DNA of 64,000 bases from Bacilli bacterium (GCA_045222195.1 JBGUXN010000003.1:27311-91310), one strand, 5' to 3'; positions 43,399 through 63,572 are shown, counted from the first letter of the stretch. Program-made: numbers and translations. The notes: generated by a model not told the origin, from the sequence alone.

Positions 43399-43401
43399 TC
43401 T

Positions 43402-44064: not shown

Positions 44065-44111
44065 AAACTTACCTCCATAAGATAACTTAATATTATTATA
44101 TTAATAACAAG

Positions 44112-44633
44112 TTATTTTGTTAATAAACAAAGATATTTTTCAAATGCTTTGTTATAAATATCGACAAGCTCAGGATTAATGACACACATATAAACATATT
44201 TAAGTGTTTTAGGCTTATAGTTACAAAGTACTTGCCCCACTATATCAGCAGCTTCTTCTACTGGATACATAAAAACACCAGTGGATATCGAAGGAAACGC
44301 GATTGATTCTAAACCTAATTCATCAGCGATTCTTAAACAGTTCAAATAACAACTCTTTAGAGTTTCTTTAGGATTAGGATCACTATAATATCTAGGGCCC
44401 ACTGTATGAATAATATATTTATTATTTAAGTTATAGGCTTTAGTGACTTTGGCCTCACCTGGTCTGCAGCCATGTAATGTGCGACATTCTTCTAAGAGTT
44501 TTGGGCCTGCCGCTCTATGAATGGCACCATCAACGCCACCACCACCTAAAAGAGATTCATTCGCGGCATTAACTATCGCGTCCGCTTTGGAACCTATTTT
44601 AGTAATATCTTGTAAGATGGCTTTAATAATCAT
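44112..44633 (-). CDS. macro-domain protein (O-acetyl-ADP-ribose deacetylase type)
   Basis: '[26 protein letters not shown]' and '[11 protein letters not shown]'. Confidence 0.85.
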
Positions 44634-45424: not shown

Positions 45425-45928
45425 CTATTCGCCCAATATTTCTGCTCTTCTACGATCGTATTCTTCTTGAGTGATAACTCCACCCTTAAGAAGTCTTTCA
45501 TATCTAGCAAGTCTTTCCATATCTTGTTGATCTAAGATACGATTTGCTTTTTGCTGTATTTCAGGAGCGGATTCTCCTTCTAATTGATGTTTTGTTAAGT
45601 AATTTAATGCATGGTCTATGTATTTTTGTTCTGATCTACCAATGCAAGAGACAATGATTAGAACAAGCGCCACCAAAAACATAAAGCCAAACAAACCAAC
45701 AGGAATAAAGAATATCCATGTTGGGAAATCAGCATCAATAGCGCCCGCTTTATCAAGGATGATATAAACAAGGCCGAGTAACGCTAAAACCAGCAATGAC
45801 ACAAAGCCTAAAATAAAGCCTAAAGACCTTGGTATCCAATAAAGTCTTGGATAATGTTGTTTGCCAAACGCTAAGAGTTGTTCTCTTGAATATTCTTTAC
45901 CATTAACTGTGTATGTTTGTTGTTTCAT
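45425..45928 (-). CDS. membrane protein with a C-terminal SHOCT domain
   Basis: Two TM helices. C-terminal 'LLKGGVITQEEYDRRRAEIL'. I prefer the ATG at 45928, preceded by GAGGTG. Confidence 0.6.
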   Translation of the reverse strand: MKQQTYTVNGKEYSREQLLAFGKQHYPRLYWIPRSLGFILGFVSLLVLALLGLVYIILDKAGAIDADFPTWIFFIPVGLFGFMFLVALVLIIVSCIGRSEQKYIDHALNYLTKHQLEGESAPEIQQKANRILDQQDMERLARYERLLKGGVITQEEYDRRRAEILGE

Positions 45929-45932
45929 ATTG

Positions 45933-48900
45933 TTACACCTCATCAAATAAGCTCATTTGAGTATATGCTTCATCAATATCTTTCAAATCCTTAACAACGA
46001 ATTCAAAGAGGCTAATGATAGATTCATAGTCTTTAACTGCACTGTTAGGAATACGAATTAATTTTATACCATAATTTTTGCAGATTTCTTCTTTTTGTCT
46101 ATCTAATGCAGCTGTCCTCTTGCTACCGATGTGTTCGCCACCGTCAATCTCAAAAACAACTACTGTTTTATAACGGTTATTGAATATACCTTGGCTAGCT
46201 TGAACTACTACATCGAATTCTTTTTTACCAATTATAGAAAGGTCTTCTTTGCGAACATCTTTAATTGCTTCGGCAACAGGAACGTTTCTACTTACTCTAA
46301 ATTTAGTACCTCTTCTGTTGAAATAAGGCTGAATGGTATCGAAAAAGTCTTTCTCGTTCTTTGAATCGTTAGAGAAATCATAGGAAATAATTGCGTCACT
46401 TTTTGGCACAATAATTTCGCCGTTTTTATAAACGTAATCAGATAAGACTTTAATATCATTCTTTTCTTCACCGCTTAGCTTATCGATAGCCTCTTTATCA
46501 CCCACAAAGATGAATCTTTCTTTTGCTCTGGTGACAGCGACGTTGATTAATTCATGGTTGTCTTTAATCCACGCCATTGTTTTCTTGCCAGTTCTTGGAG
46601 ATAATGCAGCAGACATGATGATGACTGATTTTTCAGAACCTTGAAGCGTATGAACTGTTCCAGCTTTGATATCATCTCTGCCCATACGAATTAACAAACT
46701 GTTAATCATTTCGGCCTGATTGACAAACGGGGTTATGATGCCAACATCTTTATACTTATTATCTTTGATAATTTTAGCGATTTGGATGGCTTCTTCTCTG
46801 TATGCGTTTCTAGCGTTTGGATTAAATGTGTTTTTCACGTTGTAATAAGTCAATTCACCAGAATTATCGTTAAGAAGTTTGAGCTGCTCATTATAGAATC
46901 TTTGGTTAACAAAGCTTGCAATCTTTTTGCCGCATCTATAGTGATATCTCAAAAGAATGTTCTTGGAGTTGTTGTCTTTTCTAAGCATCGTTTTAAGAAT
47001 TGAATTATGAACATAGTCATACTCTTCTGAGATTCCATATCGCTCCATTAAATCTTCGTTAACGTTTTCTTCAATAACGGTGACCGGTTGAAGCTGATTG
47101 GTATCACCAACAAGTAAAAGATTCTCGCCTCTAACGATTGGAATTAACGAAGACGCCGTATTGCATTGTCCTGCTTCATCCATGATAACCAAATCGAATT
47201 GTGGTTTTGGTTTACCGAGTTTATCACAAGAAAGGTTGGTGCATATTACAATTGGGAAAACTAGCAAGAATCTTCTAAGATTGGTGTCTTTTCTAATCCA
47301 TTTATTGAACTGCCTCACCGCTTCTTCTAAATCCTCGATAGCGATAATATTCCTTAACTCCTTGAATATATCGTTTGATAATCTTTTAAACCTGAGTAAG
47401 GAAGAATAATAAACATAGTTTTGGAAGTGTCTATCTTCAGAAGCAGAAACTGCGTATTTCAAAACATCTTCATCGCTTATTTTTCTCGCGTTTTGTGCTT
47501 TTTCTTGATAAGCCCGAATCTGTTCATCAAGTTTGGTGTTGATTCTGTCGATTGTTGTCAGATTTCTAATCTTTTGAAGAGTTTCAATTCTTTCATTTAA
47601 ATCGATTTGCTCTTCATATTCGACGAGGAGGTCTCTAAGCTCTTTGAAGTCCGCTAAAGATTTGTCTTTGCTGGCTTCTGTTGATTTTTCTTTGACTGTG
47701 GCGTCTTCATTTTCATTAACAAAGTTAAGTATCTCTCTTAACTTGAGAATTGTGTTTTGTGTTTCTAAATTATTACCTATGCGAATAATTGGGAAAATAA
47801 TGTTTTCTCTTTCGCTGGCGGTTCTTCTTTTAATTGTTAAAGTGCCGTCCATCTTTTTGAATATATCTGAAACAGGGTGGTTGTTGTTTGAACAAACTAA
47901 AACGGTCTTGTCGTTAGCATAAGCCGAAAGCAAAACGTTGAATATAGTTTCGGTTTTTCCGGTGCCGGGAGGTCCTTTAACGTACGTTACACGGTTAACC
48001 ATTGAGTTATAGACAACACGCATTTGGTCAATATTGATTTTCTTTCTATCAAAAACAACAATGTTAACTTCTTTAGATGTACCGCTCTTGCTCTTGTTTC
48101 TTCCAAAGAACGCTCTAAGCGGAACAGTCAACTTACCTTCTTTATCCATTTGATGAATTGCTTCAAAGGCCTCATCAACACCACGATAGCAATCTCTCAT
48201 CAAAAAGAAGATGGTTGGACGGGTATTAACTTTTTCGCCATTATGGAAGTTTTGTTCAATTAATTTGATATATTCCCTTTCGTATTCATCATAATGGGCA
48301 CAGAAATCATCTGGATTGGCATCCAAATACATGCCAAGGGTAACCTTTCTTTCTTCTGTGACTAAGAATGATTTATTAATGGATGTCTTATCCGACATCT
48401 TGAGTGTTTTGTTCTTGAAGTTAAGAGATAAGGTGCGATATGCCACAACATATTGTTTGTCATTTAAATCAATCGAGAACTTATTGATAGCAAGGGTTTG
48501 ATATCTATTGATTTCTTCAGCTTCGTTTTTAGGCTTTTTGAATACCCTGTCTAAAAGAGCTTGGAATTGCTTGTCGTCCAATTTATATTTGCCGCTTTCA
48601 AAAAGAGTGTGCGTATCAATGCCGTCTATCATGACAACGTCTTTTAAAAATGGATCGTTATCTAATCTATAACAATCAGATAAGTACCTAAGAATATTGT
48701 TATCGAAATTAACTACTTCTAAATATTCCCCTATTTTCTTATCATTAGTAACTCTCTCCACTAATTCTTTAGGAGATTCGTAGTAACTATTTTCTAATAC
48801 CGATGCTGTTTTGATTCCGTCGACGAAAATGAAGGTGTTTTTGCCACCCATCATGACTTCTGTGCTTTTGTGGGGGTTAAAAATATCACAAACGATTCTG

Positions 48901-49049
48901 CCTTTAGCAATATCAATGCCTTTTATGCCAATGTAATAATAAGTAGTATCTCCTTCCTTATTTAAATAAGAGATATCTAACCATTTGTTGTGAATGATTG
49001 CTTGAAAAATAGAATTCTTAATTGAGATCTTCATATTCGTTCGTATCAA
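45933..49049 (-). CDS. SF1B (Upf1/DNA2-like) helicase fused to a C-terminal PD-(D/E)xK-type (DUF2726/DUF559-like) nuclease domain
   Basis: 'GPPGTGKT', 'IMDEAGQ', 'LVGDTNQLQP', 'TVHTLQGSEKSVII', 'NVAVTRAK'. C-terminal 'FDVVV...VVFEIDGGEH...IKLIRI'. The ORF-track start is TTG; the first ATG is at 49034. Confidence 0.75.
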   Translation of the reverse strand: MIRTNMKISIKNSIFQAIIHNKWLDISYLNKEGDTTYYYIGIKGIDIAKGRIVCDIFNPHKSTEVMMGGKNTFIFVDGIKTASVLENSYYESPKELVERVTNDKKIGEYLEVVNFDNNILRYLSDCYRLDNDPFLKDVVMIDGIDTHTLFESGKYKLDDKQFQALLDRVFKKPKNEAEEINRYQTLAINKFSIDLNDKQYVVAYRTLSLNFKNKTLKMSDKTSINKSFLVTEERKVTLGMYLDANPDDFCAHYDEYEREYIKLIEQNFHNGEKVNTRPTIFFLMRDCYRGVDEAFEAIHQMDKEGKLTVPLRAFFGRNKSKSGTSKEVNIVVFDRKKINIDQMRVVYNSMVNRVTYVKGPPGTGKTETIFNVLLSAYANDKTVLVCSNNNHPVSDIFKKMDGTLTIKRRTASERENIIFPIIRIGNNLETQNTILKLREILNFVNENEDATVKEKSTEASKDKSLADFKELRDLLVEYEEQIDLNERIETLQKIRNLTTIDRINTKLDEQIRAYQEKAQNARKISDEDVLKYAVSASEDRHFQNYVYYSSLLRFKRLSNDIFKELRNIIAIEDLEEAVRQFNKWIRKDTNLRRFLLVFPIVICTNLSCDKLGKPKPQFDLVIMDEAGQCNTASSLIPIVRGENLLLVGDTNQLQPVTVIEENVNEDLMERYGISEEYDYVHNSILKTMLRKDNNSKNILLRYHYRCGKKIASFVNQRFYNEQLKLLNDNSGELTYYNVKNTFNPNARNAYREEAIQIAKIIKDNKYKDVGIITPFVNQAEMINSLLIRMGRDDIKAGTVHTLQGSEKSVIIMSAALSPRTGKKTMAWIKDNHELINVAVTRAKERFIFVGDKEAIDKLSGEEKNDIKVLSDYVYKNGEIIVPKSDAIISYDFSNDSKNEKDFFDTIQPYFNRRGTKFRVSRNVPVAEAIKDVRKEDLSIIGKKEFDVVVQASQGIFNNRYKTVVVFEIDGGEHIGSKRTAALDRQKEEICKNYGIKLIRIPNSAVKDYESIISLFEFVVKDLKDIDEAYTQMSLFDEV

Positions 49050-49132
49050 AATAATTATAAATGTTGTCTCTTATAATTACGAACGATAATTATAGTGATA
49101 CAATAATTAAGAACATATCGAGAAATAGTATT

Positions 49133-49660
49133 ATGGACAAAGAGAAACAAGAAAAACAATTGCTAGAACAACTAGACGAAAAGTTTCTAGCACAATCTGA
49201 CCAATCATATATCGTAGCCACCACCGAATATTCTAGAGAAATAGAACAATCCCTAGACGCATTAATTGCAGAAGAAATGCAAGGCTATGATGACATTATC
49301 AGTATGCTTAAGGAGAGACTAGATTTAACAAAAGATTTCCTTAAAAGTGGCCAATTAACTCCAGAAGAAAAAAGATACTATTATGAGGAGCTTAAAAGCA
49401 TTCAATTTGAAATAGAAAATATCTATCTAAAAAAGAACGAAGCTATTAATGAAAATAAAAAAGAAAAGCATAAAACCAAAGTTATGCTCTTTTCCGAAAG
49501 AATTACTCATAATACAATTACTGATTTAACAGCATTAGGCAAAGTTATTGCAAGTATCATTAAAGCCTATAATGCCGCCGCTAAAACAACGATTGAACAA
49601 TTAGAAATCAAAGAGTCGTTCTTAAAACTCAAATCTAAAATTGCAACTAAGAAAAAATAA
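49133..49660 (+). CDS. coiled-coil hypothetical protein
   Basis: E/K/Q-rich ORF, with the ATG at 49133 preferred. Divergent from the helicase gene. Confidence 0.4.
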   Translation: MDKEKQEKQLLEQLDEKFLAQSDQSYIVATTEYSREIEQSLDALIAEEMQGYDDIISMLKERLDLTKDFLKSGQLTPEEKRYYYEELKSIQFEIENIYLKKNEAINENKKEKHKTKVMLFSERITHNTITDLTALGKVIASIIKAYNAAAKTTIEQLEIKESFLKLKSKIATKKK

Positions 49661-49668
49661 TAATTAGA

Positions 49669-51738
49669 CTACACTTCTTTCGCATCTATCTTAAGTTCAC
49701 CTAGATAGATGTTTTTAATAATGTCATAAATAATGACTGTGCCCCATGAGTCAATCTTACAGTACGCTAAAGCTTCATCGAGTAAGTCTTGAGTACTTGG
49801 TCCAATATCCTGTTCGTTTAAATGGCTTCTTACAATAAGAGATTTATATAGGTCTAAACAAATACCACCATTATATACAAGGCATTTATCTCCCTTGTGG
49901 TAGTCAAGAGAATCCGTTAAATCAAATGGTAGTTTTTTATTATAGAAATCTAAAACATCTTGATCTGCCGCTAAAGTTGGTTGAACAACTTTTAAAGAAC
50001 CACGTCCATTGAAATCAACACAATAGATGCTTCCAGATGTAAAGAAATCTAATAGGTCTACTACGTTATCATTAAAGTTATTAACAAATCTAATTAAATC
50101 GTTATCGCACAAATCTACGAAGTCTCTAGCGAATTCAAACATTCTGGTCTTTTCAAAATTTTGATTAAAGACCACTACTCGATAATTAGAAGCATATGGA
50201 TCAATACCAGATTCTTCTAATTGTTTTTTAAGTGTTTTATATAATTCAATACTTGGGTTGATATATTTAGTGATATCTGGATTGGCAATATATTCATAGT
50301 GTTTAACACCACCACCGATACCTTTAGCGAAATCATGTTCTGTTAAATCATATCCTTTATTAACAATATGCATAGAATATTGGGATACGATTTGTTTCCA
50401 AGGATGAGAATGCTCCACAAGTGGTATTGGATATTGGAAAGATTCAAAATCAAAGAACAATAAATAATCTATATCATCGTTATAGTAATCTCTTTCAATT
50501 ATTTCTTTTATTAAATGACGTGATATCACGTATTTTTCTTTGATATTGCCTTTTTGATATTCAACTTGTAGATGAGCGGAACATCTACTACCATTCTTTT
50601 TTATTTCATCAAAAGGATTAGGATCAATATCACTTATTTTAGTAATACCTGATTCGATTAATTCTTTAGTTTTAATGTAGTTACCACCATAAAGATTCCA
50701 ATTAGTTAATCTAAAGATGGAATTAGGAGAATCAGCATCATTAAAACACATGTCAATTAATTCACATCTTGGACCTTTACGACATTCATATTTCATCTTT
50801 GGATAAACATCTGAATCTTTAGATATCCTATCAATGTCATCTAATATATCCTCTATTGTGGGTTTTATCTCTTTACTTCGAGGAACATTAATATATAGTT
50901 TTTCATCAAAATATTGTTTTAAAGGTAATGTTTCTGTTTTTAGATTAATTTCTCTTTTAATAACAAATAACCTAAATAGTTCACTTCTATCAACTGGATA
51001 AGATAAGACTCCTAATTCAAAGTCTCTATTAGTAAACATAAAGCCTAGTTCTCTAATTTGGTAACCCGCTTTTTTATAGACATAATATTGGAATAATAAG
51101 TCATATAAATATTTATCTTTAATCTTAGTATCAACATCATAGTCTTTTTCACCTTGTCTAGAAGGGTGAACAAAAACATCATTCGTGCCTTTAACTTCGA
51201 TTAATTCATAAGTATCATCTTCGTTTTTAAGTAAGATATCAAATCTCGCTCTTAAGCCATCTACTTCTACTTGTCCTTCAAATATGACTCTAATATTAGG
51301 ATCATTAATATATCTAAATGTATATCCTAAGATTTCATTTTGATCTAATAATTCATTACCATCCTTATCAATATCACATCTAGCACAGTGTTCTTTACCA
51401 TATAAATCTTCATAATAATCACGAGATAACTTAGATATGAGCTGGTTATTATTATATTTATCAATTAATACTTCCGCAGGATTCTTTTTAATTGTTTTTT
51501 CAAATTCCGCTATTTCTTTTTTAAGATATGGATAATCTTTTAAAGTTTCATACAAATCAAAAGTATCGTCGCCATCAGTGTCACTATCGCCTTCATCTTC
51601 CGCTAGTTCACGATATTTTTCTTGATTCGCTATTGATCTTTTTAGAAGCGCGATTAAAGTTTTGTCTTCTAATTCAAGAGACACTAAATAGGGGCATCTT
51701 TTCGCTACGTAATCTTTAATAACTGTTTTTGTAATCAT
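49669..51738 (-). CDS. DUF2779-like protein with an N-terminal Cas4/PD-(D/E)xK-type nuclease domain
   Basis: N-terminal Cys ('AKRCPYL'). 'FDILL...LIEVKGT' (D...ExK). Cys cluster 'ECRKGPRCELIDMC'. Confidence 0.55.
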   Translation of the reverse strand: MITKTVIKDYVAKRCPYLVSLELEDKTLIALLKRSIANQEKYRELAEDEGDSDTDGDDTFDLYETLKDYPYLKKEIAEFEKTIKKNPAEVLIDKYNNNQLISKLSRDYYEDLYGKEHCARCDIDKDGNELLDQNEILGYTFRYINDPNIRVIFEGQVEVDGLRARFDILLKNEDDTYELIEVKGTNDVFVHPSRQGEKDYDVDTKIKDKYLYDLLFQYYVYKKAGYQIRELGFMFTNRDFELGVLSYPVDRSELFRLFVIKREINLKTETLPLKQYFDEKLYINVPRSKEIKPTIEDILDDIDRISKDSDVYPKMKYECRKGPRCELIDMCFNDADSPNSIFRLTNWNLYGGNYIKTKELIESGITKISDIDPNPFDEIKKNGSRCSAHLQVEYQKGNIKEKYVISRHLIKEIIERDYYNDDIDYLLFFDFESFQYPIPLVEHSHPWKQIVSQYSMHIVNKGYDLTEHDFAKGIGGGVKHYEYIANPDITKYINPSIELYKTLKKQLEESGIDPYASNYRVVVFNQNFEKTRMFEFARDFVDLCDNDLIRFVNNFNDNVVDLLDFFTSGSIYCVDFNGRGSLKVVQPTLAADQDVLDFYNKKLPFDLTDSLDYHKGDKCLVYNGGICLDLYKSLIVRSHLNEQDIGPSTQDLLDEALAYCKIDSWGTVIIYDIIKNIYLGELKIDAKEV

Positions 51739-51960: not shown

Positions 51961-52701
51961 CTACATATCGATGTAAAGCTTTAAAGAAACATTCTTTTGC
52001 CTTCCACCTCTAATATCAAGACCAGTTTTGGCTCTTTGGATTAGAACATCTATTTTGGACAAATCAATTACTTCATATCTGTCTGTGGCGATGAAAATGA
52101 TATAGCCTACATCAGTGAGCGTTTCTTTTATATACTCAAGAATGTTTTTATCTTCGCTGAGCATGTAAAACCTATTAAATACATTATTTATATACACACC
52201 CAGACTAGCTCCTTGTTGCTCAATCAAAAAGACCACAATTTGATTAGCATATTTACTTTTTTTCAATGAATCTAAGTGATGTTCGACATTTCTTTTAAAG
52301 GATTTGATAAAGGATTCATATGAAAAGCATTCGTGCGTGTCCTCTATTGTTTCTGTTCTCATAGTGCCCGGATGATGAGGGCTTTCCATAAAATCTTTAT
52401 CGAGTTGTTTAAAATGTTTGTCATTTTCTCTCTGACAGTATGCATCATCAATTTTGTATTGTGATCCTTTGCGCGTTTCATCAGAAGCAGTTACTTCAAA
52501 GTGTTCAATTATTCCACCGTCAAAGAAAAAATCAGGAAAATCGCTATGTTTCTCGTTTTGATGAGTACTACTAAGGATTGACTCCATTATTGAATAATCG
52601 GAGTTGTCAAACACCTTTGTAATACCTTTGAAATATATGAAACTGTCTTTTATCTTATTTAGACAATCTAGTTCGTTTTTTCTTAGATTATTATCCTTCA
52701 T
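51961..52701 (-). CDS. hypothetical protein, gene 6 of the GHKL operon
   Basis: ATG at 52701 preferred; the track start at 52734 is TTG. No recognised domain. Confidence 0.5.
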   Translation of the reverse strand: MKDNNLRKNELDCLNKIKDSFIYFKGITKVFDNSDYSIMESILSSTHQNEKHSDFPDFFFDGGIIEHFEVTASDETRKGSQYKIDDAYCQRENDKHFKQLDKDFMESPHHPGTMRTETIEDTHECFSYESFIKSFKRNVEHHLDSLKKSKYANQIVVFLIEQQGASLGVYINNVFNRFYMLSEDKNILEYIKETLTDVGYIIFIATDRYEVIDLSKIDVLIQRAKTGLDIRGGRQKNVSLKLYIDM

Positions 52702-53113
52702 CTTCTTCAGTTTCCGTTTTTTTCTTTTTATCAAGAATCGCTCTAATTACAAAGTAAGCTATAGCAGCTAAAACAATTACGCCCATAACTATACCTATAG
52801 TAAGAATGTATTGTTCGATGCCCCATACGATATATGCGATAACAAATCCGAGTAGCGTGGAAATAATGAAATAGGCTATTTTCATAATTCCACTATTGAA
52901 CCATCCTAGAGCATTGAAAATAACACCGACCAAGCTATAAGAAACAATGAAAGTTAAAATTCTAACTATAATTCCGCCAGCAATTGAAGTGTCTGGTTGG
53001 GAATATTGAAGAGTAAATAACCAAGCAAAGAATTTGAGAATGTTAGCAAAAGCACCACTACATAAAAGTAGTAAAATTACGATTGAAGCAATGATGCTGC
53101 CTACTTTCTTCAT
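52691..53113 (-). CDS. small four-TM membrane protein, gene 5 of the GHKL operon
   Basis: 140 aa with four hydrophobic helices and an acidic/basic tail. Confidence 0.55.
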   Translation of the reverse strand: MKKVGSIIASIVILLLLCSGAFANILKFFAWLFTLQYSQPDTSIAGGIIVRILTFIVSYSLVGVIFNALGWFNSGIMKIAYFIISTLLGFVIAYIVWGIEQYILTIGIVMGVIVLAAIAYFVIRAILDKKKKTETEEDEG

Positions 53114-53119
53114 GTCAAA

Positions 53120-53878
53120 TTAATCCAAAGATAGGACTTGCTTAATTTTTTCGTGCAAAGTATCGACAAGCACCCGCTCTTCAACACATTCAGTCATGCT
53201 AACATTTGTTAAAGCCGAGTATTGGAGTCTCACTTTTTCATATGCTTTGAAAGAAATCTGCAAATCTGGGTGCTTTTCTTTTGCAATTTTAAATGCTCTA
53301 ATAAACGCTCGTGACGAATTAATCCCGTCCATATTTGGGTTGTACACAATTCTTCTTAATGCAGGATTATTAAACACAAACCTAGTCAACTCATATTTAT
53401 CATCGAGCGTTTCGTCAACTGTCATCTCAACAACCTTGTACAACCTAGTCATTAAATTTCTAGCAATTGCTTGCCTTAAACCTTTTCTATGATCAAAGAA
53501 AAATGTAGCTGATACCCTTGTCTCTGCAGCTAAATCACTAGCCCAAATAAAATATTTATATCCAAATGTATAGAGAAAACCTGCCGCAAATTTTTCGTTG
53601 TAAATAACTGCATTACCAATCTTATTGTTTTTAAACAATTCATATAAATTCACTGCATTGTTGAACTCGCTTTCCTTCGGGTTTAATGAATTTGTTTCAA
53701 AATCAAAATCAAAATTATATGGAGAGCTGGTGGTTGGGTCTTTTTTACAAAAATCTTTTATCCAAGCAGTGCCTTCCTTGTTGCTTTTTAAGGTCTCAAA
53801 GAAGTCTGTCATGTTTTGATGAATAAAATCTAACCCTTTATCAGTAAAGACTCTTAAATTAGTCATTTTTAGCACCAT
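53120..53878 (-). CDS. hypothetical protein, gene 4 of the GHKL operon
   Basis: 252 aa. Overlaps the upstream gene's stop codon. No recognised motif. Confidence 0.5.
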   Translation of the reverse strand: MVLKMTNLRVFTDKGLDFIHQNMTDFFETLKSNKEGTAWIKDFCKKDPTTSSPYNFDFDFETNSLNPKESEFNNAVNLYELFKNNKIGNAVIYNEKFAAGFLYTFGYKYFIWASDLAAETRVSATFFFDHRKGLRQAIARNLMTRLYKVVEMTVDETLDDKYELTRFVFNNPALRRIVYNPNMDGINSSRAFIRAFKIAKEKHPDLQISFKAYEKVRLQYSALTNVSMTECVEERVLVDTLHEKIKQVLSLD

Positions 53879-54764
53879 CCTCTCTCGCCTTTACAATGAA
53901 ATCTAATTCTTTGTAGGCGGCATTTTGTTTCTTATTGCCAACTTTGAGAAGTAATTGAGCAGCAATTAAAGGACTAATGTCACTTTGGCAAGGGTCCTTA
54001 TTAAACTCTTTGAGGTATTTATTTGTAATAACCTTGTACCATTCTTTGTTTTTATTAGTTGTGTTAAAAAGATTGTCGCTATCATCTCCGCTTTCTTTCA
54101 TTTGCTGGAGGATAGAAGTAAATTCAGGAATAAGGAAATCAACTATTATTGATTCCTCGTTTTTGTTGCACACCTTTGTATAGTGCTTATACATCTTACT
54201 TGATAAGCGAAAAACAATTCTATCTCCGCTCAAATCAACTTCAAAATATTCCTTGTCGTTCATTGACTTGACTTCTGTAAATGAAACTATTGATTGTTTA
54301 CCACCATCTTTGTAATGGTCAATAGATATTACATATGTATTGCTCTCTCCAACAACGTTTCCCTTTTCAACATAAGGCTCTTCGCCTTCCCATTCCTTTG
54401 ATAGAGATTCATCCTTAATCTTAATATCCTTGTTTGTTACCAAAAATGCATCAATATCAACATCTCCATCTACATCAAGTGAATTAACTGCATACTTAAC
54501 TGAATTTGAATTAAAAGGCACGTCAACAACACGAACTAAGCCAAGTGGTCTACAAGAAATCTTAGCAACCACTTTTAAGTCTTGGTTGGCAATCAATTTG
54601 TTAATGTAGTCGTTATTAATTGAGTAACTGACACCATAGATAATTATTTCTTGCTTCGAATCATATTCAGCTCTACCTTCAATATGAAATTCACTCTTTT
54701 TGAAATCGGAAGAAAACTCTGCCAAATATGGGAATGAGTAAATTTTGTATCTATTCGTTTGCAT
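53859..54764 (-). CDS. hypothetical protein, gene 3 of the GHKL operon
   Basis: 301 aa. 14-nt overlap with the ATPase gene. No recognised motif. Confidence 0.5.
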   Translation of the reverse strand: MQTNRYKIYSFPYLAEFSSDFKKSEFHIEGRAEYDSKQEIIIYGVSYSINNDYINKLIANQDLKVVAKISCRPLGLVRVVDVPFNSNSVKYAVNSLDVDGDVDIDAFLVTNKDIKIKDESLSKEWEGEEPYVEKGNVVGESNTYVISIDHYKDGGKQSIVSFTEVKSMNDKEYFEVDLSGDRIVFRLSSKMYKHYTKVCNKNEESIIVDFLIPEFTSILQQMKESGDDSDNLFNTTNKNKEWYKVITNKYLKEFNKDPCQSDISPLIAAQLLLKVGNKKQNAAYKELDFIVKAREDGAKND

Positions 54765-56760
54765 TGATATTTACCTCCCATATATAGTTTTGTTTAACAT
54801 CTAGTTTTAGGGGAATTTTATACTTTGTTCCTCTATCAATTTTCTTCATAAAAATAATGTTTTTCTTCGTCTTTAAAGGAAGAAGGCCGTGTTTTGCTTT
54901 CAAGACCTTTGCAGGAATTGTGTCGTTAGCGCCAGTGCCAATAATGAATATTTCAATGCTTACGTCCGTTCCAGAACTCTTTGGAGTGAAAATTAAATTG
55001 AATAGACCTTCCTTCGGATTTACAGATGACATTTTTGTATTTGCAGTTTCAACATTTTTTCTTGCTTTAGTGAGGATTCCACTATCTGTTTCATCAAGTA
55101 AATTTTCAGTGTTGCCTTCTCTATAATCTCCACCAATGCCGTTGTTGGTTCCTTCAGGAAAACTTGTGTCTTCATCATCTCCTGGAAGCCCTTCAACATC
55201 TATCAGACCTGTCGCATCAGTTTCATCATCAGATATTTTGTTACTTTTCTTTTTTAGTGGCTTTCTCTTATGAGAATGTTTTGAAGGATCGTTTCTTATG
55301 CTAAAAGAAGCTTTTGAGATTGGTAAGCCGATGTCCTTGTTTGTTTCTTTTGCTATTTCATGATTGTCATCAGCTGAGCACCAATCGTTTTGGATCATGT
55401 AATCAAAGTCCGACTCTGTTGACATGTCGTTGTTTCCAAAATTATTAGCTTTTGTTTCTATAAAATGTGAAACAGCATTCAAGGCTTCTTCGATTTGATC
55501 TACTGAGTATTTCGTCTTATTTGCTTTACTCTTTGACCATTTTGAATGCGTTGCATCTTCGATTGATCTCAGTCTTTGGGCTAATTCTTCTCCCTCAATT
55601 AACAAAACACCAGTGCATTTCACAAATGCGTTTATTTCATTGTTTCTAATAAACATCCGTGTTGGACATCTATAAATATATAGTTTGTTATCGCCACTAA
55701 AATCATCTTCAAGAAGATACATGGTCATCTTAAAACCGGGTTTTTCGTCATATACAAACCTTTTCTTATTGGCGTTTGTTAAAGAATTATAGATGTTTAA
55801 ACAAGACTCTCTTTGGCTTTTATTCTTATAAGATGCAGATTGGTTAACAATGTAATTAATATTCGAAGGGTTAACTTCAGATTCCACTTGAATACCTAAT
55901 TTGTCATCTAATCCATCTATTATTTTTACACTTAATTTCTTGTTTAAAATTGCAGGCAAAAAACTGTAAATCACCTGACCAATGACTTGCTTTATCCAAT
56001 CTTCATCGCATAAGAAAGACGGAATATAAATATCGGTACCTATACCGCGTTTTTCGCGATCAAATGTTTCATCTAAATTAAAAATGTTCACGGATGGACT
56101 GTTGTTTACTTTGGATTCATTGTCTTCAACACAGAAGCAAACTCCTTGAGTCCAATCTTTCTTTATGTCATTTTCGTCAGAAGAAACCAAAAAGCCAACA
56201 CCGATAAATGCTTTTTCGTTATCTTTGGTCAATGTCGATAAAAACAAAGTCTGCAAATTTGAATTAGCAAAAATTGCATTTTTTCCTACACCTTTTGAAC
56301 CACCAGAATTAGCGCTTTGTTTGGCGTTTTTTCCTGCGCCATGAACGAAAGAGAAATATGGGGTTTTCGAACTACTACTGGTTGACCCCCATAGACCTGT
56401 TGTGTTGAAATCGGATATCCTCAGCCACACCATCTCTTCTTTATTTAATTCATCCAATGCTTTATTAACAAAGATTAAGTCTTTATCATCTTCGGAAATG
56501 TCAACTTGAGTTCTCTTCCAATTTTCTAAATACTCTTTAAAAGATTCTAATGCAGGAAACGCAGATGTTTTGGTTTTAAAGGTCCTAAATTCAACAAGAA
56601 CTGGTTGATTATCTAAGCTAGCATCTAAGGAGTTTTGAAGTATCTCACGTACCAAATTGCCGATTCTATCATCAGCAAAGGTATCGATATTGTTATTGTC
56701 AGAACTGCTTTGTGTAGTAAAGCCAGATTTTGGAAAGTTCCAAATAAGATTATCTATCAC
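54751..56760 (-). CDS. GHKL-superfamily (Hsp90/MutL/MORC-like) ATPase, gene 2 of the operon
   Basis: N-box 'NLVREILQNSLDAS', 'ISDFNTTGL' (DxGxG-like), 'GGSKGVGKNA' (G2-like). GTG start overlapping the upstream TGA (GTGA). Confidence 0.6.
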   Translation of the reverse strand: MIDNLIWNFPKSGFTTQSSSDNNNIDTFADDRIGNLVREILQNSLDASLDNQPVLVEFRTFKTKTSAFPALESFKEYLENWKRTQVDISEDDKDLIFVNKALDELNKEEMVWLRISDFNTTGLWGSTSSSSKTPYFSFVHGAGKNAKQSANSGGSKGVGKNAIFANSNLQTLFLSTLTKDNEKAFIGVGFLVSSDENDIKKDWTQGVCFCVEDNESKVNNSPSVNIFNLDETFDREKRGIGTDIYIPSFLCDEDWIKQVIGQVIYSFLPAILNKKLSVKIIDGLDDKLGIQVESEVNPSNINYIVNQSASYKNKSQRESCLNIYNSLTNANKKRFVYDEKPGFKMTMYLLEDDFSGDNKLYIYRCPTRMFIRNNEINAFVKCTGVLLIEGEELAQRLRSIEDATHSKWSKSKANKTKYSVDQIEEALNAVSHFIETKANNFGNNDMSTESDFDYMIQNDWCSADDNHEIAKETNKDIGLPISKASFSIRNDPSKHSHKRKPLKKKSNKISDDETDATGLIDVEGLPGDDEDTSFPEGTNNGIGGDYREGNTENLLDETDSGILTKARKNVETANTKMSSVNPKEGLFNLIFTPKSSGTDVSIEIFIIGTGANDTIPAKVLKAKHGLLPLKTKKNIIFMKKIDRGTKYKIPLKLDVKQNYIWEVNINANE

Positions 56761-56984
56761 AATGTGAACCTCCTTTTGCTTTTTTTGCGTTTATTAAATT
56801 TGTTTTTATTTTCTTTTATGGACTCTTCAATTGCTGAAAAAATAGCCTTTACTTCCTCTTCTGAATATTCATAAAAGGATTTGTTGGATAGATTTCCCAA
56901 TAAATCAAGCATATCCATTATTTTTTCAGTGCGAGCCTCTGCTAATCGTTTAAATCTTGCGTGTTTATTTTCGTTTTTTTCCAT
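56757..56984 (-). CDS. small basic helical protein (75 aa), gene 1 of the GHKL operon
   Basis: ORF translationally coupled to the ATPase gene. The ATG lies 6 nt after a candidate -10 box, so the transcript may be leaderless. Confidence 0.45.
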   Translation of the reverse strand: MEKNENKHARFKRLAEARTEKIMDMLDLLGNLSNKSFYEYSEEEVKAIFSAIEESIKENKNKFNKRKKSKRRFTL

Positions 56985-56990
56985 ACTTTA

Positions 56991-57018
56991 ATTCTAGTAT
57001 TTTTGTAATATTTTGCAA
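56991..57018 (-). promoter_or_regulatory. candidate promoter of the GHKL operon
   Basis: Minus strand: TTGCAA (57018-57013), 16-nt spacer, TAGAAT (56996-56991). Confidence 0.4.
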
Positions 57019-57079
57019 ATATAATATATTTTTTGGTGTTTAGATATTTATATCTACTTTTTAAATCATTTTGGCTTAC

Positions 57080-57101
57080 AAAAAAATGGCCGCGAACGAC
57101 C
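57080..57101 (-). terminator. intrinsic terminator ending the R-M operon
   Basis: Minus strand: GGUCG-UUCG-CGGCC followed by AU7. Confidence 0.75.
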
Positions 57102-57121
57102 ATCTTCATGTTTATTGGCTC

Positions 57122-58570
57122 TTACTTATAATAATCATCAATTAGAACATCAAAATCTACATCTATGCCAAGCTCATTTAATTTCTTTATTCTTGTATCG
57201 TATAAAGGCCTTAGATATTTAACTTTTTCTGCTCGTGTTCCATAATGAACGGCTTTATGGCAATTAGGGCAAAGAGCAACTATGTTTTCCAGCCTATCTA
57301 GATTAATTCCTAAAGAAAGATAGTCTTTTTGCGCTTTCATAGGAACTAAATGATGGGCCTCTAAATAACGCGTTCCATGAATAGAATCAAAGGTTGAATG
57401 ACTGCCATCGATTTTGCCACAAAGTTCGCAAACATAGTCAGCGTTTTTGATAGCTGTTTTTGCTAATCTAGGATCTGTAGAAAACCTGTTATTTGTTTCT
57501 AATCCACTTTTAAGAACAGGCTCTCTGTTATTACTTCTGTCAATATCTTCTTCGTTATCGTACACGCTCGCTTCTTTTACTTCTTGTTCGTCTTCCATGT
57601 CCAGGATAGCATCGATAATAGTATCGATATCCGGATTATCTTTATCAGGAACAACGATCGAAATATCTTTGCTTGCAGAACCGCTAAATTCAGAACTCTT
57701 TTTAAATACAGCTTTGCGTCTATGCGCTCTTCTAACTGTCCCGGTTGGATTATCGGTTAAATCAAAATCAAAGCCTTGTATATTTTCTAAATAGGATCTG
57801 TATTTTGTATCATTAGAAAGATAAGTTTGTAATTTGGTGAGGTTTTGGGCAAGAACAAAATTATCATAAAAATCATCGGCAATAGGATGATTCAAAGATA
57901 ACAAGTCGTTCTCTAAAGAAAACATTTTTGTATTGTCAAAGATTAAAGTCATTATTCTGCTATCGGATTTATATTGTCTAACAAAAGGAGAAATCTTAGC
58001 TTTTGGATCACCAATCCAACGTACAGCATCGTCAACCTCATCCATTGATTTACACGTTAGAACGTAGGTCCATATTTTGTTCATTGGAACTAGTTTCATT
58101 CCATAATCTTTATCTAATTTCCACATGACCAAAAACAAGAATAGGAAAGGATAAACGAAATAATCATCACGGTTCTCTGTAGTATCAATGATGGATTTTA
58201 TTTTTACCTTAAGAAGCTGTTCGGACATTATTTTCTTGAATTCAACGCTGTCCATAGCGTATTTCTTTAATTCAACAAAAACAGGAGTAACTGTTTCATT
58301 GGAATAACTGGAACCGCCTCGAGAATAGTATGGATCTTTTGTAATTAAGCCAAACATCTGAGCAATCGCTAAAATTCTATGTCTGTTTGTGCTGATACCG
58401 TATCTTTCATGGTTATCATTAAAATACTGTTCAATATTGGTGTTTTCTACATCTGCTATTTCACTGAATAGTTTGGACGACAAAAACAGTTCATTAAATT
58501 CAGCAATTTGTTTTGTATACGCCCAAGCGCTTTTAATATTTAGAGAGTCATATTTTTCTTTAGCGTTCAT
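57122..58570 (-). CDS. HNH endonuclease, probable restriction component
   Basis: C-terminal 'CELCG...EAHHLVP...NIVALCPNCHKAVH' HNH/zinc motif. Overlaps the C5-MTase stop codon by 11 nt. Confidence 0.7.
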   Translation of the reverse strand: MNAKEKYDSLNIKSAWAYTKQIAEFNELFLSSKLFSEIADVENTNIEQYFNDNHERYGISTNRHRILAIAQMFGLITKDPYYSRGGSSYSNETVTPVFVELKKYAMDSVEFKKIMSEQLLKVKIKSIIDTTENRDDYFVYPFLFLFLVMWKLDKDYGMKLVPMNKIWTYVLTCKSMDEVDDAVRWIGDPKAKISPFVRQYKSDSRIMTLIFDNTKMFSLENDLLSLNHPIADDFYDNFVLAQNLTKLQTYLSNDTKYRSYLENIQGFDFDLTDNPTGTVRRAHRRKAVFKKSSEFSGSASKDISIVVPDKDNPDIDTIIDAILDMEDEQEVKEASVYDNEEDIDRSNNREPVLKSGLETNNRFSTDPRLAKTAIKNADYVCELCGKIDGSHSTFDSIHGTRYLEAHHLVPMKAQKDYLSLGINLDRLENIVALCPNCHKAVHYGTRAEKVKYLRPLYDTRIKKLNELGIDVDFDVLIDDYYK

Positions 58571-59669
58571 CTTTCAAAAGCTCCTTAACCATAAAGGCGA
58601 ATGTATATGCAATTTTTGGAGGAACGGCGTTTCCGATTGTTTTGCAAACAATGCTTTTTGTTCCTTCAAAAACAAAGTCATCAGGGAATGATTGTATTCT
58701 TGCAGCTTCTCTAGGAGTAATCATCCTATCTTCAGATGGGTGTATAAATTGACCACCGGATGGAGTGTCAAAACGAGTTGTAATGGTTGGAGCAACTCCC
58801 TCCCACTCAAGCCTTCCATATGAACCACTGTGAACGGAGTGTATTTCTTCTTTTAATGAAGTATAATTCTGACCCGGTTTTATTTGTTTAACTCTATCCA
58901 ACGCCTTCTTGGTTAGTTCAAATCTATTGTGGTTTGTGATTGTCTTCCCACTGCAAGATAAGAATTTTTGATAATCAGTCTCTGGAGAAGGATTAGTAAT
59001 AATGCCACTTTCAGAAGGTTCTGGTAAATTTGAAATTGCATCTTTTACTGTTACTTTATTGTAAAAGTTTGGATATTTGGCTAAAACTGCATTCTTAGCA
59101 ATTTCTAGATATTTTTCGAAATCAAAGTCGGCATTTTTTCTTCCAATAATGATTACTCTTTCTCTTTTTTGAGGGATACCAAATTCAACACCTTTCACAA
59201 CTTTATAATGTAAGTAATATCTATCTCCGTTAAAGTTCTCAGAATCAGAAAAAACTTTAATAATTTCTTTAAAAATGTCACCGTTGTTCATAGATAAAAT
59301 GCCTTTGACATTCTCGATAATAAAAACTTTTGGTTTTACGATTTGAACAACTTTTAAGTACTGCTTAAATAAATAATTTCTAGGATCATCAACAAAAGAA
59401 TTTTGTCTGATTCTTGCCCCAGCCATAGAAAAGCCTTGGCATGGCGGACCGCCAATTATCACATCGACTTCGTTTTCAGAAAAATTGGAAGAATTATTAA
59501 TGTTTCCAATATCATCGACAAACAATTTTGTATCAGGATGATTTATTTCGTATATAGCTGCAATTTGTTTATCAAATTCCACTGCCTTCGAAGCAAAAAA
59601 ACCAGCCTTTTCAAAGCCAACCGAGAAGCCTCCAACACCAGCAAATAAATCTATGACCTTGTTATTCAT
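58560..59669 (-). CDS. DNA (cytosine-5)-methyltransferase
   Basis: Motifs I 'DLFAGVGG', IV 'GGPPCQGFS', VI 'ENVKG', VIII 'QKRERV', X 'GNAVPP'. Confidence 0.9.
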   Translation of the reverse strand: MNNKVIDLFAGVGGFSVGFEKAGFFASKAVEFDKQIAAIYEINHPDTKLFVDDIGNINNSSNFSENEVDVIIGGPPCQGFSMAGARIRQNSFVDDPRNYLFKQYLKVVQIVKPKVFIIENVKGILSMNNGDIFKEIIKVFSDSENFNGDRYYLHYKVVKGVEFGIPQKRERVIIIGRKNADFDFEKYLEIAKNAVLAKYPNFYNKVTVKDAISNLPEPSESGIITNPSPETDYQKFLSCSGKTITNHNRFELTKKALDRVKQIKPGQNYTSLKEEIHSVHSGSYGRLEWEGVAPTITTRFDTPSGGQFIHPSEDRMITPREAARIQSFPDDFVFEGTKSIVCKTIGNAVPPKIAYTFAFMVKELLKDER

Positions 59670-61263
59670 TGTCTTTTCCTACTCTATATTTTAATGCATA
59701 ATTCTTAACTTTAATTAGTTCTTGCTTGTTCAATTTGTAAATTGCTGCAAGAGCATCGTCAATCTTGTCTATGATATTTTTGCAACATTTATGCTTATAA
59801 GCATATTCTGTTTGAACACTACCAATATATACTTTTGTCTCTTCAAGTTTTTTTTCTAATTCTTTTGCCAAACAATCGAATTGTTTATAGTCAATTTCTT
59901 TTCCTGCCTTGACATTAAAAGACGAAAGTTCTCTTCCTGTAATGTGCCAGCAATCGGACATCACAACCCAATAAAACCAAAACAAACTTGAATTCATCAA
60001 ACAAAGAATGTAGTTTCGCATCTCTGGAGAAAACCTAAATTCTTTATATTCACTACTTCCAGGGTTAAAAGTAAAAGCTTTATTCCAAAAGAACCCTCTC
60101 ATGTTTAAATAAACCGGCAATCCCTCTTTTTGCTTTAGGTTGTCGAAATTGAATGGTTCTCCACCGTATACTTTATCAAAAATAGTGAGTTCTATCTCGG
60201 AACCAACCTTCGGATAAAACCCATAATCACGCGGGAGTTTAACCAATTCTTTTGGTTTGAAAATAGATTGCCTTGTTTCTCTATAAAAATACTTATAATT
60301 CGAGACATAAATTCCTTTTTGCTCAGAATTGTTTGTAGCGATAAGAATCGTGAGTTTTTGATGAACTCTTGTAAATAACGACGCTGGTCTATCGGAATAA
60401 TTGGCGATTAGCTGTTTAGAAAAAGTACATTCAATCGCATTACGTATTCCGTTCATTCTAGGCGTTGCAACATATGAAAGAGGGATAATAAAACCCATAA
60501 CGCCATTTTCGTTGATAAAATGACTAGCATTTTCAATGACATCTGCATAGATATTTCCATATTTGCTCACTCTTGTTCTTTCGACATATGGAGGATTTCC
60601 AATTATTAAATCAAAGGAATTCAAATCTTCTTTTTTAATCGTCAAAAAGTCAAAAGTAGTAAAACTGTCTTTTATGGCATGTGCAATAGAATCGTCGCAT
60701 CTTTTTAAGAACAAAGCAGATTGAATAAATAGCCTTATCTTAGAAATGTTATTTGCGTCTGAGTCAATGTCATTACCGCTTATTGTTGAAAGAACTTTTA
60801 TTACATCGTCGACAGTAATGGTCTCTCTAACCGACTCCAATAGTTTAAATTTCAATTTCAAGACAGACACCAAAAACTCTCCAGTGCCAGATGTAGGATC
60901 GAACACGGTTTTATTGAACACAAAATCTAAAGCAACATTTTTATCAATGAACCACTTAAATAACGAATTGCAGTCGAGTAAGTCGTTTTTAGATTTGCAA
61001 TACAATGAGTGAACTGAGTTATAAACAATATAGTCACAAACATCAACAGGAGTATAAAACACCCCATTCTCCTTTTGATCGGTTGAACGTTCATGTATCT
61101 TAGAGATGCTTTTTTCAAACTCTTCCATCGATTCGAAATTGGCAAAAGCTTCGTTAAAAAAATCTTCATTAAAATTAAATGATCCATAATAACCATTCAG
61201 GAGCACTTCGAGTGAATGTCTAACATCAATAAAGTCTAGTAAACCAATGCATTTTTGTTTCAT
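59662..61263 (-). CDS. N6-adenine DNA methyltransferase (Eco57I-like, gamma-class)
   Basis: 'DPTSGTGEF' (motif I) followed by 'IIGNPPY' (motif IV). Confidence 0.8.
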   Translation of the reverse strand: MKQKCIGLLDFIDVRHSLEVLLNGYYGSFNFNEDFFNEAFANFESMEEFEKSISKIHERSTDQKENGVFYTPVDVCDYIVYNSVHSLYCKSKNDLLDCNSLFKWFIDKNVALDFVFNKTVFDPTSGTGEFLVSVLKLKFKLLESVRETITVDDVIKVLSTISGNDIDSDANNISKIRLFIQSALFLKRCDDSIAHAIKDSFTTFDFLTIKKEDLNSFDLIIGNPPYVERTRVSKYGNIYADVIENASHFINENGVMGFIIPLSYVATPRMNGIRNAIECTFSKQLIANYSDRPASLFTRVHQKLTILIATNNSEQKGIYVSNYKYFYRETRQSIFKPKELVKLPRDYGFYPKVGSEIELTIFDKVYGGEPFNFDNLKQKEGLPVYLNMRGFFWNKAFTFNPGSSEYKEFRFSPEMRNYILCLMNSSLFWFYWVVMSDCWHITGRELSSFNVKAGKEIDYKQFDCLAKELEKKLEETKVYIGSVQTEYAYKHKCCKNIIDKIDDALAAIYKLNKQELIKVKNYALKYRVGKDNE

Positions 61264-63427: not shown

Positions 63428-63572
63428 AACTACCCCCAAGTTTTTAGCACAATAGAAACTAAACCAACGTTATAGATTTAGTGTTTTAAACGCATAAAAT
63501 TATTGATGCACTTATATATTAAATTAATCTAGCTGAAGATAGTAACTCAAACTCGCGACTATCGTTAAAAAG

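Follow-up and report, generated by a model that had tools for sequence, protein, structure and literature searches.

Six open reading frames (ORFs; g1 to g6, 51961-56984) on the minus strand of a 64,000-nt stretch of DNA from a Bacilli bacterium (JBGUXN010000003.1:27311-91310), the whole of which is referred to here as the window, were analysed together with the signals and genes around them. An earlier note on this DNA had described the six genes as one operon built around a GHKL ATPase and as a candidate for a novel, uncharacterised defence system with a membrane effector. The ORF calls agreed with that description in the genes, their sizes and all five junctions. The stop codon of g1 lies within the start of g2 in a 4-nt GTGA overlap, g2 and g3 overlap by 14 nt, g3 and g4 overlap by 8-20 nt, g5 follows g4 after a 6-nt gap, and g5 and g6 overlap by 11 nt. 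Comparison with homologues favours Met5 (53866) as the start codon of g4, which would give a protein of about 248 amino acids (aa).

Both the terminator and the promoter described in the earlier note were found upstream of g1. The terminator lies 3' of the stop codon of the HNH gene in a restriction-modification (R-M)-type operon that also encodes two DNA methyltransferases (MTases), and it consists of the hairpin AUGGUCG-UUCG-CGGCCAU followed by a U7 tract (-15.7 kcal/mol, z = -3.5). The consensus terminator scanner made no call at this hairpin despite the folding support, and its negatives elsewhere in the window need care. No terminator was found between g4 and g5 or past g6. The promoter-like site, TTGCAA-16-TAGAAT at 57018-56991, places the ATG of g1 6 nt past the -10 box. 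The promoter scan alone was not significant (21 sites versus 22.9 expected by chance in the region), but a real promoter is supported by conservation: four related metagenomic loci with otherwise unrelated flanks (L081:9730-9783; L082 and L083:7730-7783; L086:7742-7795) carry the block TATTATATTTGCAAAATATT...TAnAAT...ATG ahead of g1. This block is near-invariant although the proteins encoded downstream of it share only 49-78% identity, and the sequence further out is unrelated. The promoter therefore belongs to a mobile unit and marks its left boundary. Wherever the block is conserved, 6-8 nt separate the -10 box from the ATG, and the g1 message is possibly leaderless, as the earlier note had suggested. 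An 8-bp palindrome, TTTGCAAA, which contains or overlaps the -35 box TTGCAA, may be an operator, perhaps for g1.

Table 1. Features of the g1-g6 locus and of the operon upstream of it (positions in the window; TM, transmembrane segments; AF2, AlphaFold2; A1, alignment of 31 g2 homologues)
Feature	Position	Strand	Basis or remark
Promoter/operator block	56985-57030	-	kept in L081, L082, L083 and L086
g1	56757-56984	-	75-aa ORF
g2, PADLOC PDC-M33A, paraMORC2-like ATPase	54751-56760	-	669-aa ORF, GTG start; PADLOC E = 5.5e-109; AF2 and Foldseek
Bergerat N-box (motif I) of g2, REILQNSLDA, aa 38-47	56620-56649	-	192/193 homologues
E401-x3-H405-x2-W408 of g2, C-terminal end of S5-like domain	55537-55560	-	invariant in A1
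g3, PDC-M33B	53859-54764	-	301-aa ORF; PADLOC E = 3.3e-34
g4, PDC-M33C, DUF6339 family	53120-53878	-	252-aa ORF
g5	52691-53113	-	140-aa ORF, four TM
g6	51961-52701	-	246-aa ORF, counted from ATG
Intrinsic terminator of upstream MTase-MTase-HNH operon	57080-57103	-	7-bp stem, UUCG loop, U7 tract
Upstream R-M-type operon, overlapping genes	57122-61263	-	Pfam, NCBIfam, PADLOC
Eco57I-like N6 MTase, 533 aa	59662-61263	-	
C5 cytosine MTase (Dcm), 369 aa	58560-59669	-	
HNH protein, 482 aa	57122-58570	-	C-terminal HNH, PADLOC mREase_IV-like E = 4.7e-10; ~350-aa N-terminal region

Comparison with the PADLOC hidden Markov models (HMMs) showed that g2, g3 and g4 match components A, B and C of the candidate system PDC-M33, and that they are adjacent, co-oriented, overlapping and in the same order. 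Residues 6-667 of g2 correspond to positions 4-625 of the 627 in PDC-M33A. PDC-M33 is modelled with three genes, whereas the window copy adds g1 and, locally, g5 and g6, none of which had a PADLOC match. No mechanism, validation or MTase component is recorded for PDC-M33 in PADLOC, a literature search for PDC-M33 and DUF6339 found no paper, and a search for GHKL or MORC plus defence returned other systems only. The system can thus still be called uncharacterised, as the earlier note had it, but not novel, the trio being listed as PDC-M33 and its ATPase fitting the paraMORC2 description.

Relatives of g2 were sought in one genome per species across 185,579 species and were present at 555 loci (about 0.3% of the species), mostly in Bacillota from the gut, the rumen and soil. 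Partner genes were identified by iterative HMM searches in the best 80 of these 555 loci, to which all counts out of 80 refer; 86 related loci were considered in all. Genes g3 and g4 were found in 77 and 75 of the 80 loci, respectively, with every miss attributable to a truncated contig, and gene sizes, overlaps and the A-B-C order were stereotyped across the 80 loci and L081-L086. Directly upstream of g2, or of an accessory gene described below, g1 was present in 43 of the 80 loci and in all five close relatives. In L081-L086, where g2 is 49-75% identical to that of the window, g1-g2-g3-g4 occur with the same overlaps and are followed by unrelated genes (e.g. SHOCT/DUF2971, PolC, helix-turn-helix (HTH) and methyltransferase genes). 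In the 86 related loci, the conserved unit is g2-g3-g4, which is essentially always present, plus g1 in about half of the family, and 53120-57030 is one copy of a mobile four-gene cassette consisting of the promoter, g1, g2, g3 and g4.

An accessory protein of 830-1280 aa, encoded between g1 and g2 or directly past g4, was observed in 20 of the 80 loci (e.g. L010:1292-3871 and L032:13464-16256) and is not encoded in the window. It bears a sigma-70 region-4-like HTH (..LTRERVRQIE..), and its sole database echo was a weak match to the HTH of MzaA (E ~1e-4). A different GHKL set was seen in contig L088 (757-7631), in which a 693-aa ATPase with an ExxxH..W motif matches PDC-M33A at its N-terminus alone (E = 2.5e-13) and has partners of 329 and 233 aa that are unmatched by the g3 and g4 HMMs. 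Also encoded there are a 302-aa protein weakly matched by MzaD, a 106-aa MazG-like protein and a 638-aa DUF2075-like protein. The L088 set points to a broader superfamily in which paraMORC2-like trios have exchanged partners.

The conserved block, g1-g4 or g2-g4, does not extend to the six genes that the earlier note had taken as one unit: g5 and g6 were found in 0/80 genome loci and 0/5 of the closest metagenomic relatives, and neither had a match in the family libraries or the PDB. The neighbourhoods of the ATPase homologues thus showed a conserved, island-associated trio and not a conserved six-gene block. Hydropathy analysis identified four hydrophobic segments in g5, in agreement with the four-TM protein expected. 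Close homologues of g6 were present in only two informative contigs. In L087 (485-1637) the g4-g5-g6 order is the same as in the window at 88-96% identity, so that this arrangement is not independent evidence. In L088 (7631-8741), g6 is 86% identical but is preceded by a different TM protein and the DUF2075-like gene, and the GHKL gene three genes away is a distant relative (~30% identity over 131 aa); the disparity in conservation and the intervening genes indicate that g6 moves independently. Because g5 and g6 together are restricted to a near-identical contig, and g6 elsewhere stands in another context, they are a separable passenger pair, which was inserted 6 nt past g4, is unrelated to the cassette and is probably co-transcribed with g1-g4 in the window. 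A six-component system, in which g5 (with g6) is a membrane effector triggered by the ATPase, would be consistent with the probable co-transcription of all six genes, given the short g4-g5 spacing with no terminator and the g5/g6 overlap, with the recurrence of the arrangement in L087, and with the TM protein and g6 pair that appears in L088 in an island with a distant GHKL trio. The membrane effector was nevertheless considered very improbable, given the absence of g5 and g6 from the related loci, where unrelated genes lie past g4, the near-identity of L087 to the window and the independent movement of g6 in L088.

The g6 motif FPD-x7-IEHF-x-(V/I)T-S-x-E-x2-KG-x-Q is kept in a 26%-identical homologue on a Jeotgalibaca plasmid (L093:4887-5645), whose gene and a serine recombinase gene overlap at the end of the latter, and the assignment of g6 as a diverged PD-(D/E)xK nuclease would be speculative. 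A small multi-TM protein and a protein of about 250 aa appear as a movable pair in the window, L087 and L088, with the larger protein also in L093.

Searches of g2 against Pfam, NCBIfam and PDB-sequence profiles gave no match, and a Pfam scan of 31 members of the g2 family yielded HATPase_c_3 in one member only, at E = 0.11, and no HSP90; the fold was seen solely by structure prediction. An AF2 model of g2 (mean pLDDT 77) was built on A1, the alignment of 31 homologues. Foldseek matched this model to Hsp90, GRP94 and TRAP1 (E = 4e-9, ~480 columns, 9-14% identity), followed by the GyrB ATPase region and the SMCHD1 ATPase module, with alignments of ~470-490 columns that span the N and middle domains of Hsp90 and the ATPase and transducer domains of GyrB. 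The predicted structure and the motifs agreed with the earlier recognition of a GHKL ATPase with an N-box and a Gly-rich lid, and confirmed at the level of the model that an S5/transducer-type domain follows the GHKL domain of g2. In the model, the GHKL domain occupies about aa 1-250 and an S5/transducer-like α/β middle domain about aa 251-440, followed by a charged, low-complexity linker predicted to be disordered (aa 445-555) and a C-terminal β-sandwich (aa 556-669).

The Bergerat motifs REILQNSLDA (E39/N43/D46), SDFNTTG, GGSKGVGK and GTD were invariant in A1. Among 193 full-length g2 homologues, the N-box, the lid (GGSKGVGKNA in g2) and GTD were each kept in at least 189 and motif II in 182, and the E...H..W motif was kept in 191 at a median position of 387. 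The ..ILQNSLDA of the g2 N-box resembles the N-boxes of MutL and MORC. By analogy with MutL, Hsp90 and MORC, E39 would be the catalytic base and N43 the Mg ligand.

The best structural matches of g2 being Hsp90 chaperones, a function outside defence was considered, such as that of an Hsp90/HtpG-like chaperone, of a histidine-kinase-like signalling pair, or of an epigenetic or partition factor of a mobile element. The presence of the family on plasmids and prophages agrees with such a function, and an analogous GHKL pair, HEF_HK/Response_reg_2, was read as two-component-like (Bellieny-Rabelo et al. 2021, PMC8011034). However, Pfam found no HisKA or receiver domain in g2 and no HSP90, and the C-terminus of g2 is predicted to be a β-sandwich after a disordered linker, so that the likeness to Hsp90/HtpG is structural only. 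The sporadic distribution of the family, its variable flanks and its consistent R-M, abortive infection (Abi) and GmrSD neighbours also argue against a non-defence function, which was regarded as extremely improbable. The HEF_HK/Response_reg_2 pair belongs to a paraMORC-related GHKL set that is over-represented beside type II R-M genes, especially C5 methylases (PMC8011034); it differs from the present system, which has three or four genes, in comprising only two and in its families, PF19191, PF19192 and HATPase_c_3. Neither PF19191 nor PF19192 was detected by Pfam in g1-g6 or in 31 g2, 43 g3 and 44 g4 homologues.

The AF2 model of g3 (pLDDT 81) consists of a β-sandwich (aa 26-187), a helical bundle (aa 189-295) and an acidic tail, and Foldseek returned generic Ig/FN3-like matches alone (E ~2e-3) and no recognisable catalytic fold. 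A PD-(D/E)xK or Toprim nuclease, suggested by the family consensus E...DD...EK, was rejected for g3: the first acid is S70 in the window protein and its nearest relatives, and the β-sandwich and helical bundle of the model also contradict it. The predicted fold, its generic matches and the loss of the acidic pattern in the window together argue for an adaptor rather than an enzyme.

For g4, both PADLOC (PDC-M33C, E = 4.9e-18) and Pfam (DUF6339, E = 1.8e-10) gave matches, and DUF6339 was matched by all 44 aligned members, with conserved polar residues that include N74, E95, W98, R136, R145, D155, T165 and D230; the g4 profile had no match in the PDB and none in Pfam other than DUF6339 even at E <= 1. 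A fusion search over 1.84 billion representatives showed that g4 relatives are nearly always stand-alone proteins of 240-270 aa. The one informative exception is the 407-aa ORF P0336, in which a DUF6339 domain cut short at residue 183 is joined to the N-terminal half of a C5 DNA methylase; the ORF may be a genuine fusion, or an artefact in which a frameshift or the assembly has linked neighbouring g4 and MTase genes. The small g1 product is basic and helical, has a (K/R)F-x-L tail conserved at its C-terminus and no match in Pfam, PADLOC or NCBIfam, and is a candidate accessory fourth subunit or regulator. Family libraries and profiles, with AF2 and Foldseek for g3, identified no nuclease family or fold in g1-g3.

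The published computational description of the paraMORC2 family fits g2. These proteins are GHKL+S5 ATPases of Gram-positive bacteria and cyanobacteria found in R-M contexts, and the passages devoted to them report a strongly conserved ExxxH at the C-terminal end of S5 and C5/Dam methylases, Vsr and AIPR as neighbours (Iyer, Abhiman and Aravind 2008, PMC2292703). The family of g2 agrees with those passages in every feature compared, namely the GHKL motifs, the S5-type domain, the ExxxH (E401/H405), the methylase, Vsr and R-M neighbours and the mostly Gram-positive hosts. It differs in that the superfamily II (SF-II) helicase and RE-fold partners stressed there lie outside the present core, and in that the same passages do not describe g1, g3 and g4. 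Prokaryotic and eukaryotic MORC proteins and SMCHD1 share with g2 the GHKL plus S5 ATPase module, SMCHD1 being among its structural matches, as well as a link to DNA methylation. In contrast to MORC proteins, g2 has no coiled-coil or CW domains, and the S5 motif GhXhhpXXRhl was present in none of the 31 g2 family sequences, in line with the lack of a HATPase_c_3 detection.

The cassette was tightly linked to methylase genes, both in position and in evolution. A Pfam scan of the immediate flanks placed C5 DNA_methylase and D12 methylases at the head of both the upstream and the downstream lists. When MTases were counted by position with family HMMs for the C5, D12 and N4/N6 classes, they occupied position -1 in 19/69 loci, +1 in 18/68, -2 in 7/65 and +2 in 4/64, versus about 1%, and no more than 2%, at positions 3 to 6 on either side; an MTase adjoins the cassette in 36 of the 80 loci and lies within two genes of it in 44. 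A convergent C5 MTase of about 531 aa stands immediately past g4 in seven loci from different genera; its identity from locus to locus is 57-83%, in step with 48-86% for g2, while the next genes on either side share no similarity. A compact arrangement of g1-g4 with the convergent C5 MTase is that of Faecalibacterium prausnitzii (L078; NZ_CP186691.1, around 1.242-1.248 Mb). Mantel tests correlated the similarity matrix of g2 with that of the adjacent C5 MTase (rho 0.62, reached in 0 of 2000 permutations) and with that of the adjacent D12 MTase (rho 0.27, 2 of 2000). These results show that the association of MTases with the cassette is specific and co-evolving, and that cassette and methylase travel together. 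Among the 33 genes next in line after an adjacent MTase were about five recognisable restriction endonucleases (REases; three MutH-like, one DpnII and one NgoFVII) and three Vsr genes, the remainder being unrelated, and as far as family matches can tell, most MTases adjoining the cassette are without a recognisable restriction partner.

In the window, the nearest MTase lies two genes upstream of the cassette, in the separate operon behind the terminator. C5 MTases are the only family among the window neighbours that recurs beside the cassette elsewhere (28 loci), and the R-M-type operon is a candidate methylation partner. The HNH protein was rejected as a recurrent partner, the search having returned just one spurious 71-aa match in one locus.

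Taken together, the cassette is best interpreted as an ATP-driven, methylation-linked, restriction-like defence module, an interpretation to which we assign a probability of roughly 55%. The methylase link, which was absent from the earlier note, shifts the likely mechanism from abortive infection by a membrane effector toward one resembling R-M. In the proposed mechanism, g2 would be an active GHKL ATPase, as its predicted fold and its motifs suggest, and ATP binding would make its N-terminal domains dimerise into a nucleotide-gated clamp, by analogy with MutL, Hsp90, MORC and GyrB. Strict co-occurrence and overlapping genes suggest that its partners in a complex would be g3, as a non-enzymatic adaptor, g4 (DUF6339) and, in the clade of the window, the small, translationally coupled g1. 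The neighbouring MTase would mark host DNA, and the cassette would presumably act on unmarked incoming DNA rather than the reverse. Candidates for the effector are DUF6339, the ExxxH-W site of g2, a nuclease of the adjacent R-M system (here the HNH protein) and entrapment of DNA without a nuclease. The methylase link and the lack of a visible effector are what is new in the present analysis, the GHKL trio having already been catalogued.

Several points weigh against this interpretation. Type II REases often escape detection by Pfam, so that the "orphan MTase" is unproven outside the seven-locus clade, and no nuclease or other effector was recognisable in g1-g4. About 45% of the loci are without a detected MTase within two genes, and methylation may therefore be optional or provided in trans. 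The MTases of the window and of its closest relatives belong to apparently complete R-M sets (Dcm + HNH; AlwI + D12), and, with the terminator before g1, their adjacency could reflect clustering in islands. Three MTase classes are associated with the cassette, which is hard to fit with one fixed reader of methylation, and the Mantel correlation could stem in part from shared host phylogeny. Moreover, PDC-M33 is an unpublished 'phage defence candidate' of PADLOC-DB (Payne et al.) whose members are known from genes alone.

The apparently complete R-M sets raise the alternative that the GHKL complex, itself lacking an effector, is an accessory motor of a neighbouring R-M system, such as the Dcm/Eco57I-like + HNH set of the window or the AlwI + D12 set of its relatives, looping or remodelling DNA and coupling recognition to cleavage much as MutL coordinates MutH, Vsr and UvrD. 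The cassettes of the window, L081, L082 and L086 lie directly downstream of such a set, as does probably that of L083, where an unannotated 601-aa protein is the candidate nuclease; an AlwI R-M system also adjoins the trio on Lactococcus plasmids, MutH-like, Vsr, DpnII and NgoFVII genes occur just beyond adjacent MTases, and g1-g4 contain no nuclease that could be found. The same proposal appears in the paraMORC2 passages of Iyer et al. (PMC2292703). On the other hand, the MTase alone co-travels in the seven-locus clade, with no REase conserved, the genes beyond adjacent MTases are mostly unrelated, the R-M partner types are heterogeneous, and the strong terminator and the separate conserved promoter uncouple the window cassette from the upstream operon. 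We consider this alternative unlikely.

It is also conceivable, but unlikely, that the cassette is a stand-alone defence or abortive infection system that does not depend on methylation, in which the GHKL complex senses a phage protein or DNA structure and a toxic activity of DUF6339 or g2 follows, with MTases being common neighbours merely because R-M genes dominate defence islands and mobile elements. Such independence is in line with the 36 of 80 loci that have no MTase within two genes, with the three-gene PADLOC model, which holds no MTase, with the promoter and terminator insulation of the cassette, and with its occurrence on plasmids and a prophage beside Abi genes. Island clustering does not readily account for an MTase frequency of ~27% at +1/-1 compared with 2% or less at positions 3-6 of the same loci, nor for the co-divergence of the MTase with g2 while the flanks are unrelated; the joining of DUF6339 to a C5 MTase in one ORF, a possible artefact, would point the same way.

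Within the methylation-linked interpretation, a more specific and decidedly doubtful proposal is that the cassette and its co-travelling MTase constitute a self-contained, nuclease-free "epigenetic" immunity, in which a MORC-like clamp with g3, g4 and g1 entraps or compacts unmethylated DNA. If so, DNA lacking the host methyl mark would be silenced or its replication blocked without being cut, and the system would be a prokaryotic counterpart, and possibly an ancestor, of eukaryotic methylation-linked silencing by MORC and SMCHD1. More generally, GHKL ATPases have been predicted in prokaryotic R-M-like systems since 2008, and for a family known from genes alone the problem is now reduced to a small unit of three or four genes and one methylase. 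Understanding how the cassette discriminates self from non-self would fill a gap among immunities based on DNA modification and could shed light on the link between eukaryotic MORCs and DNA methylation. The "six-gene operon" of the window amounts to a cassette already known as a candidate, to which two genes have been added locally.

Other defence systems with GHKL ATPases, and classical R-M systems, were compared with the cassette. Mza (MzaABCDE; Gao et al. 2020) is likewise a multi-gene defence system around a GHKL ATPase, with a MutL-like GHKL protein and Z1, and the accessory protein of relatives shares, weakly, a sigma-70 region-4-like HTH with MzaA. Membership of g1-g6 in Mza was ruled out by the PADLOC scan, in which no Mza HMM matched any of them, and neither a Z1 domain nor an MzaE-type partner was present; the earlier note had similarly seen no Z1, helicase or nuclease partner, and none was recognisable in the cassette. 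GHKL-Shedu VcSduA is an experimentally validated phage defence protein in which a GHKL ATPase with a clamp-like middle domain is the regulatory module (Nat Microbiol 2025, PMC12137116), but it combines this module and a DUF4263 PD-(D/E)xK nuclease in one polypeptide, whereas the window cassette has no fused or adjacent recognisable nuclease. The genetic link to an MTase that marks classical R-M systems is strong across the family, but in the window the nearest MTase belongs to a separate operon behind a terminator, and g1-g3 contain no recognisable REase.

The assignment of the locus to a defence island was supported both by the window and by the related loci. The island of the window (~45-63 kb) contains the R-M genes, the HNH protein, an Mko-like superfamily 1 (SF1) helicase, DUF2779 and DUF2130 proteins and a SHOCT membrane protein, and related cassettes adjoin AlwI R-M, GmrSD and AIPR genes. 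AlwI-family R-M genes are repeatedly found next to cassettes that share only ~25% identity with one another. On dairy conjugative plasmids of Lactococcus lactis, such as pS127 (NZ_CP061323.1, 106588-110213), the trio lies between AlwI R-M and AbiGI/AbiGII genes and carries the annotation "hypothetical / hypothetical / DUF6339 family protein". A g1-g4-like set also stands beside the integrase gene of the temperate Clostridium innocuum phage NatCom_9291 (1907-5986), with a DNA MTase gene three genes downstream.

The remaining genes of the window island, in 45425-51738 and 61751-63439, include the SHOCT membrane protein (173 aa) and an unannotated 199-aa ORF on the plus strand. The SF1 helicase (1038 aa; AAA_11/AAA_12 with a C-terminal DUF2726) matches the MkoA and MkoC HMMs and has a close homologue in L021, and the DUF2779 (UU173-family) and DUF2130 proteins are 689 and 562 aa long, respectively. 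Outside the island, two ABC ATPase genes, an ABC-2 permease gene and, just ahead of the island start, a gene for a stand-alone Macro-domain protein (173 aa) are located at 40564-44633.

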